Both the position numbers and the translations under genes were made by a program. Shown here piece by piece: positions 2,098 to 9,296 of a stretch of DNA of 16,164 bases. Each line of letters starts with the position of its first letter. The stretch's first letter is position 1. The notes under the pieces were generated by a model. That model saw only the letters and a list, made by a program, of their open reading frames with translations, was not told the DNA's origin and searched no databases. This stretch comes from a virus. Taxonomy: Duplodnaviria; Heunggongvirae; Uroviricota; Caudoviricetes. The stretch is taken from IMG/VR virus record IMGVR_UViG_3300012275_000005; one strand, written 5' to 3'.

Positions 2098-2583
2098 TTA
2101 TTTTGTGGTTTTGAAAAGTTTCATGTACTGATTGATAGGTTTTCCTGAGTAAGAATCTGTCCCTGGCTCAGGATTATCAGATAAAACTTTTGCAGCTAAT
2201 TTGTTGGAGGCTTGATTACCAACCCCGACAATAGCCTCTACATAGAATTCATTGAAGGAATTTCTAAATCCGTATTGCATTTCTTCAATGCTGGCGATGA
2301 GAAGTTGAGTACCGATGCCTTGCGCTTTATATTCATCAGCTACTGCATAGCCAACGCCAAAGCATGGTTTACCTTCAACAAACTCTGCAGGGACATATAT
2401 AGCAACACCTTTAACATTTTCTCCTTCAAAGAATGCATAAGTAAACCGTGGTGTACCCTCTGCATCATCCAAAAGCACCTTCATATTTGGGTGAACTATG
2501 CATGGTGAAGGCTTAATCAGACCATTAGAAAAGGCGTATTGAAAACTAATTAATGAGTCTGTTGGATCAACGAGTTCTGGCAT
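2098..2583 (-). CDS. GNAT-family N-acetyltransferase (moron, AT-rich, antisense to the late operon)
   Basis: 161 aa; GNAT motif-A-like segment AVADEYKAQGIGTQLLIASIEEM; own RBS AGGA about 7 nt before the ATG; sequence visibly more AT-rich than all flanking phage genes; only minus-strand gene in the window. Confidence 0.75.
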   Translation of the reverse strand: MPELVDPTDSLISFQYAFSNGLIKPSPCIVHPNMKVLLDDAEGTPRFTYAFFEGENVKGVAIYVPAEFVEGKPCFGVGYAVADEYKAQGIGTQLLIASIEEMQYGFRNSFNEFYVEAIVGVGNQASNKLAAKVLSDNPEPGTDSYSGKPINQYMKLFKTTK

Positions 2584-3534: not shown

Positions 3535-4017
3535 ATGTCAGGACCTCCGAAAACCCCGCCACGCCTGCATTTGATTCGAGGCAACCCCTCAAAGCGCCCC
3601 GTTAAAGACCACAAAAAAACCGCTAAAAAGGATGAAAAAGGTCTTCCTAAAATTCCGCAGCATTTAGGGGCTCAGGGGAAGTACTGGTTCAGGCGAATGG
3701 CGGAAGAGCTGAATGCGGAAGGGATCATTTCTCAGCTTGATGCGCGTGCGCTCGAGTTGCTGGTGGAAGCCTACACCGAATATCGGCATCACTGCGAAAC
3801 ACTCGATGTTGAGGGGTATACCTACCGCACGGAAACGCAGAGCGGTGATGTACTGATTAAGGCGCACCCCGCGGCGGCAATGAAAGCGGATGCCTGGAAG
3901 CGGATCCGGGCAATGCTTGCAGAGTTTGGTATGTCACCGGCAAGCCGGGCTAAAGTAAATATCGCCGGACCGGATGATGTTGATCCGCTGGCGGAGCTTT
4001 TAAAAGCGAGAGACTGA
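3535..4017 (+). CDS. terminase small subunit (P27 family)
   Basis: 160 aa; basic N-terminus, central …LDARALELLVEAYTEY… and C-terminal …AEFGMSPASRAKV…, characteristic of P27-family TerS; stop overlaps the TerL start (ATGA). Confidence 0.85.
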   Translation: MSGPPKTPPRLHLIRGNPSKRPVKDHKKTAKKDEKGLPKIPQHLGAQGKYWFRRMAEELNAEGIISQLDARALELLVEAYTEYRHHCETLDVEGYTYRTETQSGDVLIKAHPAAAMKADAWKRIRAMLAEFGMSPASRAKVNIAGPDDVDPLAELLKARD

Positions 4018-5774
4018 TGGCAAAAGTGGCTGACGGGATCCGCTACGCCGAACGTGTTGTTGCAGGAGAAATTGTTGCTGGCGAATTTGTCCGCCTGGCC
4101 TGCCAGCGTTTTCTTGATGATCTGAAGTACGGCGAAGAGCGGGGGATTTATTTCAGTGAACCCCGTGCGCAGCACATCCTGAATTTCTACAAATTTGTGC
4201 CTCATGTAAAAGGGGCGCTGGCAGGCCAGCCCATTGAGTTGATGGACTGGCATGTATTTATCCTCATTAATATTTTTGGTTTTGTCATTCCGCTGGTCAA
4301 TGAAGAGACCGGGGAAGTTGTCATGCGCAGCGATGGCAGCGGACGTCCGGTGATGGTGCGCCGGTTCCGGACGGCGTACAACGAAGTCGCCCGTAAAAAC
4401 GCAAAATCAACTCTGTCATCGGGTATCGGCCTGTATATGACGGGGGCAGATGGTGAAGGCGGAGCTGAGGTGTATTCAGCCGCAACCACGCGTGACCAGG
4501 CCAGAATCGTGTTTGAAGACGCCAAAAATATGGTCAGAAAAGCCCGGTCGACACTCGGGCGGTTGTTTGATTTCAACAAGCTGGCGATTTACCAGGAGCA
4601 GAGCGCATCAAAATTTGAACCGCTTTCTTCGGATGCAAACAACCTAGATGGTCTGAACATCCACTGCGCCATTATTGATGAGCTGCATGCACATAAAACC
4701 CGTGACGTGTGGGACGTTCTGGAAACGGCAACCGGTGCCCGTCTGCAGTCCCTTTTATTTGGTATCACCACGGCAGGGTTTAACAAGGAAGGGATTTGTT
4801 ACGAGCAGCGTGATTACGCCATCAAGGTATTGCGTGGCTATAACAGCGACGTGGAGGGCGCGGTAAAAGACGACTCCTACTTTGCGATTATTTACACCCT
4901 CGATGAGGGAGATGATCCGTTTGATGAAACGGTCTGGCAGAAAGCGAATCCCGGCCTGGGCATCTGTAAACGCTGGGATGATCTGCGTCGCCTGGCGAAA
5001 AAAGCGAAAGAACAGGTCTCTGCGCGGGTGAATTTTTTTACCAAACACATGAATGTGTGGGTAACAGCAGAGTCTGCCTGGATGGACATGATTAAGTGGG
5101 AGAAGTGCGAATACATTGCCCCACGACATGAGCTGAAAACGTATCCCATGTGGGTCGGCGTTGACCTTGCTCATAAGATTGATATCTGTGCGGCGGCAAA
5201 ACTCTGGCGAACGGATAACGGGCATGTTCATGCCGATTTTAAATTCTGGCTTCCGGAAGGACGGCTGGAACGATGCTCGCGGCAGCAGGCAGAACTTTAC
5301 CGGAAGTGGGCGGAGATGGATAAGCTGATTCTGACGGATGGTGATGTTATCGATCATGCTCAGATAAAAAGTGACTTACTGGAATGGATTGGTGGTGAAA
5401 ACCTCAGGGAACTGGGATTTGACCCGTGGAGCGCGATGCAGTTCAGCCTGGCACTGGCTGAAGAAGGGATACCGCTGGTGGAGGTTCCGCAGACGGTTCG
5501 CAATCTGTCAGAGGCCATGAAGGAAACGGAATCACTGGTCTATGCCGGGCGTTTCCATCACAGCAATCATCCGGTCATGAACTGGATGATGTCTAACGTT
5601 ACGGTAAAACCGGACAAAAACGACAATATCTTCCCGAATAAATCCACGCTGGAAGCCAAAATCGACGGCCCTGTTGCGATGTTTACAGCAATGAGCCGGA
5701 TGCTGGTCAATGGTGGTGAACCGGAGCTGGATCTGTCTGAACATCTGGTCAGCGTGGGCATCCGCTCGCTTTAA
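4017..5774 (+). CDS. terminase large subunit
   Basis: 585-aa uninterrupted ORF directly after TerS and before the portal; length and position typical of HK97-type TerL. Confidence 0.9.
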
Positions 5775-5785
5775 CCGAGGTCATT

Positions 5786-5968
5786 ATGTTTCTGATAATT
5801 CTCGCGCCACTGGTGGGCGTGCTGGGTGCGCTTTTGCTGGCGTATGGTGCCTGGCTGATTTATCCCCCGGCGGGGTTTGTTGTTGCCGGGGCGTTGTGTC
5901 TGTTCTGGTCGTGGCTGGTGGCGCGATATCTCGACCGTACACAGCCGTCTTTCGGCGGAGGTAAATAG
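5786..5968 (+). CDS. hypothetical small membrane protein (2 predicted TM helices)
   Basis: 60 aa, [26 protein letters not shown]…[20 protein letters not shown] then charged tail; RBS GAGGT upstream; fills the terL-portal gap exactly, with its stop overlapping the portal GTG. Could still be a chance ORF in GC-rich DNA. Confidence 0.35.
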
Positions 5969-7092
5969 TGTTCTTTTCGGGATTATTTCAACGAAAAAGT
6001 GACGCACCGGTGACCACGCCAGCAGAGCTGGCGGATGCCATCGGGTTGTCTTACGACACCTATACCGGAAAGCAGATCAGCAGTCAGCGGGCCATGCGAC
6101 TGACGGCGGTTTTTTCCTGCGTCAGAGTGCTGGCAGAGTCGGTCGGGATGTTGCCCTGCAATCTGTATCACCTGAACGGCAGCCTGAAACAGAGAGCCAC
6201 CGGCGAACGTCTGCATAAGCTGATCTCCACGCATCCCAATGGCTATATGACGCCGCAGGAGTTCTGGGAGCTGGTGGTCACCTGTCTGTGCCTGAGGGGA
6301 AACTTTTACGCCTACAAAGTGAAAGCATTTGGCGAAGTGGCTGAACTGCTGCCCGTCGATCCCGGTTGTGTGGTACCGAAGCTTAACAGTAGCTGGGAGC
6401 CGGTCTATCAGGTCACATTCCCGGACGGCTCCACGGATGTGCTGAGCCAGGAGGATATCTGGCATGTGCGCACGCTGACGCTGGACGGACTGGTGGGGCT
6501 GAATCCCGTCGCCTATGCCCGCGAGGCAATATCGCTGGCGGCAGCGACTGAAGAGCACGGGGCCAGACTGTTCAGCAATGGTGCGGTGACGTCCGGTGTG
6601 TTGCGTACAGAACAGACGCTGTCGGATCAGGCTTATGAGCGCCTGAAGAAAGATTTTGAGGAGCGTCACACCGGGCTTGGCAATGCTCACCGCCCGATGA
6701 TCCTTGAGATGGGGCTGGACTGGAAGTCGATGGCGCTGAACGCCGAGGACAGCCAGTTCCTGGAAACCCGCAAGTTTCAGCTTGAAGAAATCTGTCGTCT
6801 GTTCCGGGTACCGTTGCACATGGTGCAGAACACCGATCGCGCCACCTTCAACAATATCGAAGAACTGGGGCTCGGATTTATCAACTATTCACTGGTGCCG
6901 TATCTGACCCGCATCGAACAGCGGATCAACACCGGACTGGTACGAAAAAGTAAGCAGGGCGTTTATTACGCCAAATTTAACGCCGGGGCGTTACTGCGCG
7001 GGGATATGAAGTCCCGTTTTGAAGCCTACGCCACCGGGATTACAACTGGGGAATTTACTCTCCCAATGACTGCCGCGACCTGGAAGATATGA
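5968..7092 (+). CDS. portal protein (HK97 family); 3' end apparently frameshifted, with a portal-like C-terminus continuing in another frame to 7211
   Basis: 374-aa ORF with GGAGG RBS and GTG start. The frame ends …EAYATGITTGEFTLPMTAATWKI-stop, but the next frame reads …NWGIYSPNDCRDLEDMNPRPGGDVYLTPMNMTTKPSDGSKAGKQKDNANADETTS-stop (7041..7211), which looks like the genuine hydrophilic portal C-terminus. Confidence 0.85.
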   Translation: MFFSGLFQRKSDAPVTTPAELADAIGLSYDTYTGKQISSQRAMRLTAVFSCVRVLAESVGMLPCNLYHLNGSLKQRATGERLHKLISTHPNGYMTPQEFWELVVTCLCLRGNFYAYKVKAFGEVAELLPVDPGCVVPKLNSSWEPVYQVTFPDGSTDVLSQEDIWHVRTLTLDGLVGLNPVAYAREAISLAAATEEHGARLFSNGAVTSGVLRTEQTLSDQAYERLKKDFEERHTGLGNAHRPMILEMGLDWKSMALNAEDSQFLETRKFQLEEICRLFRVPLHMVQNTDRATFNNIEELGLGFINYSLVPYLTRIEQRINTGLVRKSKQGVYYAKFNAGALLRGDMKSRFEAYATGITTGEFTLPMTAATWKI

Positions 7093-7188
7093 ATCCGCGT
7101 CCCGGTGGGGATGTCTATCTCACACCGATGAACATGACCACGAAACCCTCCGATGGCAGTAAAGCCGGTAAGCAGAAGGATAACGCCA

Positions 7189-7839
7189 ATGCAGACGAAA
7201 CAACGTCTTGATGTACCGCTGAGTCTGAAATCTGTCAGTGACTCCGGTGAGTTTGAAGGGTATGGCTCCGTCTTTGGTGTAAAGGACAGCCACGATGATG
7301 TGGTGATGTCCGGGGCATTTGCTGCTTCCCTGCGGGCGTGGAGTGACAGAAAAGCGTTACCTGCGCTGCTCTGGCAGCACCGCATGGATGAACCCATCGG
7401 TGTTTACACCGAAATGAAGGAAGACGATGTCGGGCTTTACGTCAGGGGGCGGTTGCTCATTGATGATGATCCCCTGGCAAAACGCGCACATGCACACATG
7501 AAGGCCGGTTCGTTAACCGGCCTTTCTATTGGGTACTTCCTGAAGGACTGGGAATACGACCGGACGAAAGAAGCCTTTCTGCTGAAAGAAATCGACCTCT
7601 GGGAAGTCAGTCTGGTGACGTTCCCGTCTAACGACGAGGCACGGATCAGCGACGTCAAGAACGCGCTGGCCCGCGGGGAAATCCCCGAACAGAAAAAAAT
7701 CGAAAGAGTCCTGCGTGATGTCGGACTCTCCCGTACCCAGGCCAAAGCATTCATGGCCGGGGGCTATAGCGCACTGTCCCTGCGCGACGCTGAGGATGTG
7801 AGCTCTGCACTGAATGCACTGAAAAATCTGAACTTCTAA
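7189..7839 (+). CDS. prohead protease (HK97 family)
   Basis: MQTKQRLDV…FEGYGSVFGVKDSHDDVVMSGAFAASL… motif typical of HK97-type prohead proteases; RBS AAGGA 6 nt upstream of ATG 7189. The track ORF starts at 7153 in the same frame; I prefer 7189. Confidence 0.8.
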   Translation: MQTKQRLDVPLSLKSVSDSGEFEGYGSVFGVKDSHDDVVMSGAFAASLRAWSDRKALPALLWQHRMDEPIGVYTEMKEDDVGLYVRGRLLIDDDPLAKRAHAHMKAGSLTGLSIGYFLKDWEYDRTKEAFLLKEIDLWEVSLVTFPSNDEARISDVKNALARGEIPEQKKIERVLRDVGLSRTQAKAFMAGGYSALSLRDAEDVSSALNALKNLNF

Positions 7840-7853
7840 TCAGGAGAAATACG

Positions 7854-9059
7854 ATGGCGGTAGATATTAAAGATGTCGAACAGGTCGCGCAGGAGCTGCA
7901 GCAGAAGTTTGACGACTTCAAAGCAAAGAACGACAAGCGCGTGGATGCGATTGAGCAGGAAAAAGGCAAACTTGCCGGGCAGGTGGAAACCCTGAACGGA
8001 AAACTCAGCGAGCTGGAAAATCTCAAAAGCGACCTTGAAAAAGAGCTGCTTGAGCTGAAACGTCCGGCAGGTGGTGCGCAGAATAAACTGGCCACCGAGC
8101 ATAAAGAAGCGTTTGTGGGCTTCCTGCGTAAAGGCCGTGAAGATGGTCTGCGCGATCTGGAGCGCAAGGCATTACAGGTGGGCACCGATGAAGACGGTGG
8201 CTATGCCGTGCCGGAAGCGCTGGATCGCAACATTCTGACCTTGCTGAAAGATGAAGTGGTGATGCGCCAGGAAGCCACGGTGATCACCGTTGGCGGTTCC
8301 GACTACAAAAAACTTGTGAATCTGGGCGGCACGGCTTCCGGATGGGTTGGCGAGACTGACGCGCGCTCCCAGACTGCCACCTCAAAACTGGGCCTGATTG
8401 AACCTTTCATGGGGGAAATCTACGGTAACCCGCAGGCCACCCAGAAAATGCTGGATGATGCCTTTTTCAACGTGGAGGCCTGGATCAACAGCGAGCTGGC
8501 AACCGAATTTGCCGAACAGGAAGAAATTGCCTTTACCACCGGCGATGGTACCAAGAAGCCGAAAGGGTTCCTGGCGTATGAGTCCACGGATGAAACAGAC
8601 AAGGTCCGGGCGTTCGGCAAACTTCAGCATATTGTATCCGGCGAAGCGACGGCGGTGACCGCAGATGCCATTATCAAACTGATTTACACGCTGCGTAAGG
8701 CACACCGCACTGGCGCGAAGTTCATGATGAACAACAACAGTCTGTTTGCCATCCGTCTGCTGAAAGACAGTGAGGGTAACTATCTGTGGCGTCCGGGGCT
8801 GGAGCTGGGGCAGCCGTCCTCTCTGGCGGGTTACGGTATCGCTGAAAACGAACAGATGCCGGATATCGCCGCTGATGCGAAAGCCATTGCATTTGGTAAC
8901 TTCAAACGGGGTTACACCATCGTTGACCGTATCGGTACCCGCATTCTGCGTGACCCGTACACCAATAAACCGTTTGTCGGTTTTTATACCACCAAGCGCA
9001 CCGGCGGGATGCTGGTCGATTCGCAGGCCATCAAACTGCTGAAGATTGCAGCGGCGTAA
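7854..9059 (+). CDS. major capsid protein (HK97 fold) with N-terminal delta/scaffold domain
   Basis: 401 aa; the first ~100 aa are a charged coiled-coil-like segment (…QELQQKFDDFKAKNDKRVDAIEQEKGKLAGQVETLNGKLSELENLKSDLEKELLELK…) as in HK97 gp5 delta domain; strong RBS AGGAG; follows the protease. Confidence 0.9.
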   Translation: MAVDIKDVEQVAQELQQKFDDFKAKNDKRVDAIEQEKGKLAGQVETLNGKLSELENLKSDLEKELLELKRPAGGAQNKLATEHKEAFVGFLRKGREDGLRDLERKALQVGTDEDGGYAVPEALDRNILTLLKDEVVMRQEATVITVGGSDYKKLVNLGGTASGWVGETDARSQTATSKLGLIEPFMGEIYGNPQATQKMLDDAFFNVEAWINSELATEFAEQEEIAFTTGDGTKKPKGFLAYESTDETDKVRAFGKLQHIVSGEATAVTADAIIKLIYTLRKAHRTGAKFMMNNNSLFAIRLLKDSEGNYLWRPGLELGQPSSLAGYGIAENEQMPDIAADAKAIAFGNFKRGYTIVDRIGTRILRDPYTNKPFVGFYTTKRTGGMLVDSQAIKLLKIAAA

Positions 9060-9066
9060 TCACTCA

Positions 9067-9086
9067 GGGGCGCGGAACCGCGCCCC
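9067..9086 (+). terminator. GC-rich hairpin (GGGGCGCG-GAAC-CGCGCCCC) immediately after the capsid gene; weak U-tract
   Basis: Perfect 8-9 bp GC stem located 8 nt after the MCP stop; followed by TGTT only, so at best a partial terminator or an mRNA 3'-stabilising hairpin. Confidence 0.4.
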
Positions 9087-9107
9087 TGTTCTGACGGGTG
9101 AAGAATC

Positions 9108-9296
9108 ATGATCCTGAAACAAGATCTGAAATGGTCACCGGACGGTATGCGTGTTGAGATTATTCGGGCCGGTGAGTATGAAGATAAAGAATTACCCGAA
9201 CGGGTACGCGAAATTGCCACTGCAGCTGGGATTGTCTCTGATAAGAGAACACCTGTTGCGCGGGGGGCTGATAAGTCTAAAAAACAGCATTCATAG
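9108..9296 (+). CDS. hypothetical protein (62 aa)
   Basis: ORF between the capsid and connector genes, hydrophilic and charged; no recognisable motif. Confidence 0.35.
   Translation: MILKQDLKWSPDGMRVEIIRAGEYEDKELPERVREIATAAGIVSDKRTPVARGADKSKKQHS

Follow-up and report, generated by a model that had tools for sequence, protein, structure and literature searches.

What does a membrane protein do between the genes for the large terminase subunit and the portal protein? The question is raised by a stretch of 16,164 nucleotides from a virus of the Caudoviricetes (IMG/VR record IMGVR_UViG_3300012275_000005), which is called the window in the following. An earlier note, made from the letters of this DNA, described a 60-aa open reading frame (ORF) between the terminase gene (terL) and the portal gene, and named as its possible nature a real small membrane protein, holin-like, superinfection-exclusion-like or other, or a chance ORF. 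The comparisons reported here leave hardly any doubt that the ORF is a genuine, conserved gene of the YmfR family. What its product does is a matter of more graded statements. A conserved membrane protein among otherwise cytoplasmic assembly proteins raises the question whether head assembly or packaging might include a membrane-bound step.

The reading frame and its signals

The ORF starts with an ATG behind a gap of 11 nt that follows the terL stop at 5774, and its TAG (5966-5968) has one G in common with the GTG of the portal gene (5968-5970). As the earlier note had stated, it fills the terL-portal interval and has its own ribosome-binding site, a GAGG placed 5 nt upstream of the ATG, which is retained in the enterobacterial relatives (Table 1). 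The stop codon overlaps the portal start by one base, and the small gene is thus read within the late-operon message. The only promoter-like match of a promoter scan spans the start codon of the small ORF.

The Shine-Dalgarno sequence of the portal gene is situated inside the last glycine codons of the small ORF, and all relatives have comparable purine-rich runs of G ahead of the portal start. The tails of the homologous proteins end in Gly-Gly plus a charged residue; this C-terminal pair of glycines is conserved because its codons are the portal ribosome-binding site.

A hairpin, CCCCCGGCGGGG, followed by TTTGTTGTT with its T-run (5862-5876), scores terminator-like within the small ORF. A terminator or attenuator at this place was rejected, since synonymous sites vary freely in the relatives, and for the same reason the hairpin is regarded as a by-product of the codons for Pro-Pro-Ala-Gly-Phe-Val-Val. 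In the record of phage SfII another putative terminator is marked, close to the 5' end of the orthologous ORF.

Table 1. Positions of the small gene, its predicted parts and the neighbouring head genes in the window.
Feature	Position	Strand	Basis and remarks
terL	4017..5774	+	Pfam TerL_ATPase, TerL_nuclease; last ~18 nt inside the block shared with SfII
GAGG Shine-Dalgarno sequence of the small ORF	5777..5780	+	5 nt 5' of the ATG; retained in enterobacterial relatives
YmfR-family small membrane protein gene, 60 aa + TAG	5786..5968	+	PHROG 502, identity to K-12 YmfR, in-frame purifying selection
Predicted transmembrane helix 1, residues 2-25	5789..5860	+	AlphaFold2, hydropathy; conserved G11, G14, G21, W23
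I-Y-P-P-A-G motif, tight interhelix turn, predicted periplasmic	5858..5875	+	Alignments; most conserved part
Predicted transmembrane helix 2, residues 30-46	5873..5923	+	AlphaFold2 (helix 27-52), hydropathy; conserved G35, C38, L39, W41, S42
C-terminal tail, residues 47-60, predicted cytoplasmic	5924..5965	+	pN/pS, pLDDT; variable, weakly basic, near-neutral evolution
GGAGG Shine-Dalgarno sequence of the portal gene	5957..5961	+	Inside the last Gly codons of the small ORF
Portal gene (PF04860)	5968..7092	+	Pfam Phage_portal, E=1.6e-101
Prohead protease (S78)	7153..7839	+	Pfam, annotation of a relative; coordinates from the first ATG, true start probably further in
HK97-type major capsid protein	7854..9059	+	Pfam Phage_capsid; last full gene of the head block

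Assignment to the YmfR family

The window protein and YmfR of Escherichia coli K-12 are identical at 55 of 60 positions (92%) in a gapless alignment and fall into the same 90% cluster. YmfR (b1150) is encoded by the cryptic prophage e14 and is annotated in the database record as 'IPR020297 domain-containing protein YmfR'. The window protein matches PHROG 502 ('membrane protein') with E=3.4e-27 over residues 1-55 of 60, and the PHROGs category of this group is 'moron, auxiliary metabolic gene and host takeover'. The family signature G..G..GAW-IYPPAG-G..CLxWS, a length of about 60 aa and a two-helix hydrophobic core are all present. Profile match, YmfR identity, signature and placement between terL and a PF04860 portal gene agree in this assignment.

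Orthologues carrying the annotation 'membrane protein' or 'putative integral membrane protein' are SfII_03 of Shigella phage SfII, L37 (P27p37) of phiP27 and Sb3 of Salmonella phage ST64B. The gene family is already known and catalogued, with a K-12 name, a PHROG number and these phage annotations. The view of the earlier note that membrane proteins are not expected inside a packaging module has to be revised for this lineage, in which such a protein is a common and already annotated feature.

The K-12 gene is the same gene in another prophage, with the same placement between terL and portal. In strain MG1655 (1205549-1205731) ymfR is intact with 60 codons within the decayed e14, where only remnants are left of the flanking genes for terL (aaaE/ymfN) and portal (beeE). 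The portal gene of the window is frameshifted. The intact state of ymfR in e14 may be due to chance given its small size, or may be a hint of a host function. The terL of the window is of another type than those of SfII and phiP27.

Other collections gave little. At E<=0.1 no holin or gpW family of Pfam matched the small ORF, and the only Pfam hit was a sub-threshold one to TctB. The small protein had no match in NCBIfam or PADLOC, and a profile search of PDB sequences gave nothing meaningful. A comparison of the AlphaFold2 model with viral structure models returned only uncharacterised small phage proteins, none of them at E<=0.001.

The phage records ON470580, ON470584, ON470603 and PQ793804 give the orthologous ORF the name 'head-tail joining protein W'. 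The likeness to lambda gpW consists only in the small size and in a location flanked by the terminase (A) and portal (B) genes. The small ORF differs from gpW in that it shows no sequence match to gpW and is predicted to be a membrane hairpin instead of a soluble fold; identity with gpW was rejected on the absence of a gpW match in Pfam at this threshold and on the predicted membrane hairpin. Judged by sequence and model, the label appears to be a positional mis-annotation, and for practical use the gpW labels of some GenBank entries would seem to be erroneous.

Selection on the protein

The openness of the frame by itself is not significant, since 20% of the shuffles of the 180 nt keep 60 codons open, and the case for a real gene therefore rests on conservation. 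A search of 5.8 billion proteins gave 163 homologues, nearly all of 59-61 aa and down to 58% identity, from the Enterobacterales Escherichia, Shigella, Salmonella, Citrobacter, Klebsiella, Enterobacter, Yersinia, Hafnia and Buttiauxella. Invariant or nearly invariant columns are G11, G14, G21 and W23, the I-Y-P-P-A-G motif, and G35, C38, L39, W41 and S42; they are followed by the variable tail. In the core, conservation at the amino-acid level extends to homologues of about 35-40% identity, and particular glycine, tryptophan and proline residues are invariant.

The comparison of synonymous and non-synonymous changes, which the earlier note had proposed as a check, came out clearly in favour of a coding function. 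Across 16 loci aligned by codon, the small ORF has a median dN/dS (Nei-Gojobori) of 0.27, versus 0.08 for the adjacent portal gene. Within the ORF, pN/pS is 0.32 for the core (residues 2-47) and 0.81, which is near neutral, for residues 48-57 of the tail. The mean pairwise differences at codon positions 1, 2 and 3 are 0.29, 0.15 and 0.55. In the two shifted frames of the plus strand the ratio exceeds 1. Stops are present in all five other frames among the relatives, and only the annotated frame stays open.

The ORF is intact in all 79 close IMG/VR relatives, with 60-61 aa in 77 of them and 86 aa, counted from an upstream Met, in the other two. One disrupted copy was seen among about 180 loci, namely the frameshifted second copy of Shigella flexneri CP182557 (~4001-4216). 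On this comparative sequence evidence the hydrophobic core is under purifying selection and the tail is evolving almost neutrally. Of the two possibilities weighed in the earlier note, a real small membrane protein is upheld by the conserved frame, the purifying selection and the hundreds of homologues in the same position; by the same sequence comparisons the chance ORF is excluded.

Predicted membrane hairpin

Hydropathy gives two hydrophobic stretches, at about residues 1-24 and 30-46 of the 60-aa product, as the earlier note had seen. AlphaFold2, run on an alignment of 24 sequences, predicts a helical hairpin with helices at residues 2-25 and 27-52 and a disordered end (mean pLDDT 73; below 50 at residues 58-60). 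The only charged residues are R47, D50, R51 and K60. The short tail of the earlier note is thus present, while its basic character is weak, with a net charge of +2.

From the positive-inside rule we infer that both termini of the modelled hairpin lie in the cytoplasm and that the conserved IYPPAG turn is at the periplasmic face. The glycines which are conserved on both helices suggest, as far as the alignments go, a tight packing or a self-association within the membrane.

Fixed position between terL and portal

The family extends far beyond the close homologues. When 1.84 billion cluster representatives were searched with a profile, 285 clusters (50% identity) matched at E<=0.001; of the 150 listed, almost all comprise proteins of 50-70 aa. 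In IMG/VR there are at least 548 relatives. The genomic context was examined in 159 viral contigs, 17 loci from genomes and 6 distant metagenomic members, and wherever the flanking DNA sufficed, terL preceded the small gene and a PF04860 portal gene followed it. A set of 80 diverse IMG/VR loci covers 48 distinct peptides of 52-65 aa and a locus GC of 0.45-0.64.

The order terL, small gene, portal was found in all 17 reference-genome loci. Among the diverse IMG/VR loci, the terL match ends beside the small gene and the portal match starts at its stop in 79 out of 80, and the lone exception stops at a contig edge. In each of the six distant metagenomic members the small gene lies between a large upstream gene and a downstream gene, which it abuts or overlaps; these neighbours were identified as terL and PF04860 portal in two members, as terL only in two and as portal only in two. 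The 1-nt overlap of stop and start (TAATG, TGATG or TAGTG) with the portal gene is present in 72 of the 80 diverse loci. The start of the small gene overlaps the terL stop by 7 nt in 61 of them, compared with the gap in the window. Even between phages with portals of only about 35% identity this position does not change.

ORF03 of Yersinia phage P840 is a clear member of the family. Weak members with two hydrophobic helices at the same position are a 46-aa ORF of E. coli phage vB_EcoS-733R4 and a 67-aa ORF of Vibrio phage K265. In HK97 and in Pseudomonas phi2 the small gene is absent and terL abuts the portal gene. The adjacency of the two genes, which the earlier note had named as evidence against the ORF, is therefore seen at long range only, and none of the close relatives examined lacks it. 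HK97 and phi2 share the portal family without having the small gene, which indicates that it is not required for HK97-type head assembly in general.

Moraxella phage Mcat3 and Streptococcus phage Javan65 have small non-hydrophobic ORFs at the terL-portal junction instead. The N-terminal MFxPxxF of the portal was considered as a link to the small protein and dropped, since it is similar in Mcat3 and Javan65, where the small ORFs are not membrane proteins.

A head block shared with phage SfII

The window and SfII are 96.6% identical across 5757..9184 only, a block that comprises the end of terL, the small ORF and the genes for portal, protease and capsid. The same block is 83% identical in phiP27. 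The terL and tail genes on either side of it show strong divergence or no relationship. The terL proteins of the window and SfII share 36% identity. The tail of the window is lambda-like and non-contractile, with a major tail protein, a tail assembly chaperone, a tail assembly protein and a tape measure of 1077 aa, and that of SfII is contractile with sheath, tube and baseplate. By these sequence comparisons the small gene is the first member of a head-assembly block which is swapped as a unit, independent of terminase and tail type. What the analysis adds to the known family is that the gene behaves as a fixed member of the head block and not as an accessory insertion.

The left junction of the block falls within the terminal ~18 nt of terL, a stretch conserved in both terL types. 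Its right end falls inside a 62-aa ORF just 3' of the capsid gene (9108..9296, plus strand), which matches PHROG 1020, a group of unknown function, with E=5e-35. Within the block, the portal gene of the window contains a 2-bp insertion (TA, 7041-7042) relative to E. coli SC516 and SfII. The resulting frameshift leaves a product of 374 aa as against 408-413 aa in the relatives; this truncation may reflect a defective prophage or a sequencing error.

Between the lysis cassette of the window and its HNH and terminase genes, an ORF of 160 aa for a GNAT acetyltransferase is located on the minus strand (2098..2583; PF00583, E=4e-6; no PHROG match). This ORF looks like a genuine moron.

Possible functions of the small membrane protein

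For no member of the family was a functional or proteomic study found in the literature searched (ymfR, ST64B, Sf phages, Yersinia phage P840). In K-12, ymfR was induced alongside other e14 genes by an SOS-inducing drug (PMC10012262).

The function that we tentatively put first, while holding it to be well short of probable, is that of a late-expressed membrane accessory factor for portal or prohead assembly or for packaging, by analogy with gp40 of phage T4. In T4 the inner membrane is the site where the portal protein gp20 is assembled, helped by the viral chaperone gp40 and by YidC of the host (PMC9958956, PMC4493910). By analogy, the hairpin of the small protein would insert into the inner membrane while being made. 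It would there serve as an accessory factor for the head genes with which it is inherited, and most plausibly would tether or nucleate the portal/prohead initiation complex, or else the packaging complex. The fixed position between terL and portal, the inheritance together with head genes and not with terminase or tail, the late expression and the T4 precedent of membrane-bound portal assembly all argue in this direction. T4 gp40 provides the precedent of a phage-encoded helper for portal/prohead initiation at the inner membrane, and a functional analogy is possible. It differs from the small gene in genome context and phage lineage, and the analogy does not extend to homology.

Several points weigh against an assembly role. 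HK97-type assembly proceeds without the gene in HK97 and Pseudomonas phi2. Overlaps of start and stop codons are usual in the late operons of phages and are hence weak evidence of a functional link, and the hydrophobic portal N-terminus (MFxPxxF) is also found in portals without such a neighbour. In addition, conservation is seen in the membrane part and the periplasmic turn and not in the cytoplasmic tail; the tail, from which contact with a cytoplasmic portal would be expected, is variable. This distribution fits a membrane partner or a self-interaction better than direct binding of the portal.

A bolder and less probable form of the assembly proposal regards the YmfR-family hairpins as dedicated inner-membrane anchors or nucleators of the portal ring, which are produced from one message with the portal and perhaps match its oligomer via their glycine-rich helices. 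If this were true, prohead initiation at the membrane, for which T4 is essentially the only documented case, would be common in temperate HK97-type phages of Gram-negative bacteria.

The absence of the gene from HK97 and the variable tail leave real room for a function with a host membrane partner. The small protein could protect the host or modulate a host membrane protein, by binding an inner-membrane protein of the host or by blocking incoming phage DNA in the manner of HK97 gp15 or T4 Imm, and merely ride in the head operon; we consider this to be unlikely, to about the same degree as the anchor proposal. A partner in the membrane or periplasm would fit the conservation of the membrane residues and of the periplasmic IYPPAG turn beside a variable tail. 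The PHROGs category, which includes morons and host takeover, and the survival of ymfR in e14 beside decayed terL and portal genes are in line with it as well. HK97 gp15 and T4 Imm, inner-membrane superinfection-exclusion proteins encoded in structural operons, resemble the small protein as small phage inner-membrane proteins that sometimes occur among structural genes. They are sporadic, lineage-specific insertions, however, while the small gene is fixed, has no regulatory space and is independent of tail type.

Further observations speak against protection of the host. The gene is separated from terL by 11 nt and shares 1 nt with the portal gene, which leaves no room for a promoter or terminator of its own. 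The invariant position over deep divergence, and the intact ORF in every close relative, are unlike the sporadic distribution of morons, and the GNAT gene on the opposite strand of the window looks quite different. The occurrence in phages with non-contractile as well as contractile tails argues against the blocking of one specific injection route. PADLOC gave no match, and K-12 ymfR is induced along with lytic genes. The suggestion of a superinfection-exclusion-like protein in the earlier note is disfavoured by the lack of room for regulatory elements, the fixed position and the inheritance with head genes whatever the tail type.

Improbable to a higher degree is a role of the small protein in lysis or membrane permeabilisation, be it as holin, antiholin, pinholin-like protein or late-acting depolarising factor. 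Class II holins and pinholins, such as S21 of phage 21, are small, late proteins with two transmembrane helices rich in glycine, and the window protein has this format in its size, its two predicted glycine-rich helices and its late expression. What it lacks is the position in a lysis cassette and a match to a holin family, and its tail is short and weakly charged, with four charged residues and a net charge of +2. It has a single Met start in the window; copies of the SfII type start with M-I-M, with no charged residue between the two Met. The window already has a lysis cassette about 4 kb upstream of the small ORF (~230-1940) with a holin match (~475-540), an endolysin (963-1478) and an Rz spanin (1460-1942), and a class II holin is annotated in a relative. 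In the loci examined the small gene is never beside an endolysin gene, no holin family of Pfam matched at E<=0.1 and the PHROG hits are to groups labelled 'membrane protein' or of unknown function, not to lysis groups. The holin-like reading in the earlier note is disfavoured by the separate cassette and the missing family match.

The only experimental hint that was found, an ambiguous one, is in favour of a permeabilising activity: with the ymfR clone of the ASKA collection, a halo of D-alanine leakage was seen in round one of a screening (PMC10299036). The clone was absent from the second round, and the authors attributed such halos partly to leakage or lysis from overproduction of membrane proteins (PMC10299036).

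Slightly less probable again is a virion-borne or DNA-entry protein at the portal vertex, which would aid infection at the membrane. In favour of this, the small gene and the portal gene are inherited together, and both products are probably made in similar amounts. About 46 of the 60 residues are hydrophobic, though, which makes a soluble state inside the capsid unlikely. The literature searched holds no proteomic detection of a family member, and the independence from tail type argues against a role in the ejection route.

At a marginally lower level of probability the ORF could be a translational relay, which passes ribosomes from terL to portal and sets the portal dosage with a peptide of little importance. 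The portal ribosome-binding site within the last codons and the overlap of stop and start in most of the diverse loci are in favour of a relay, as are the C-terminal glycines, which that site explains, and the nearly neutral tail. But the sequence of the core is itself conserved, with a pN/pS of 0.32 in frame and above 1 out of frame, and HK97 and phi2 couple terL directly to portal. A chance ORF in an intergenic spacer, for which only the share of open shuffles could be cited, has a negligible probability, as the comparative data on conservation, selection and gene order refute it.

Related database entries

Two entries with names from outside the Enterobacterales are about 92-94% identical to the region of the small ORF and the portal gene: OR844959.1 ('Enterococcus phage Efm 3-10', 1764 bp) and JAEWTL010000102, from a metagenome-assembled genome labelled 'Bacillota bacterium'. 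Both are probably mislabelled or contaminant sequences.
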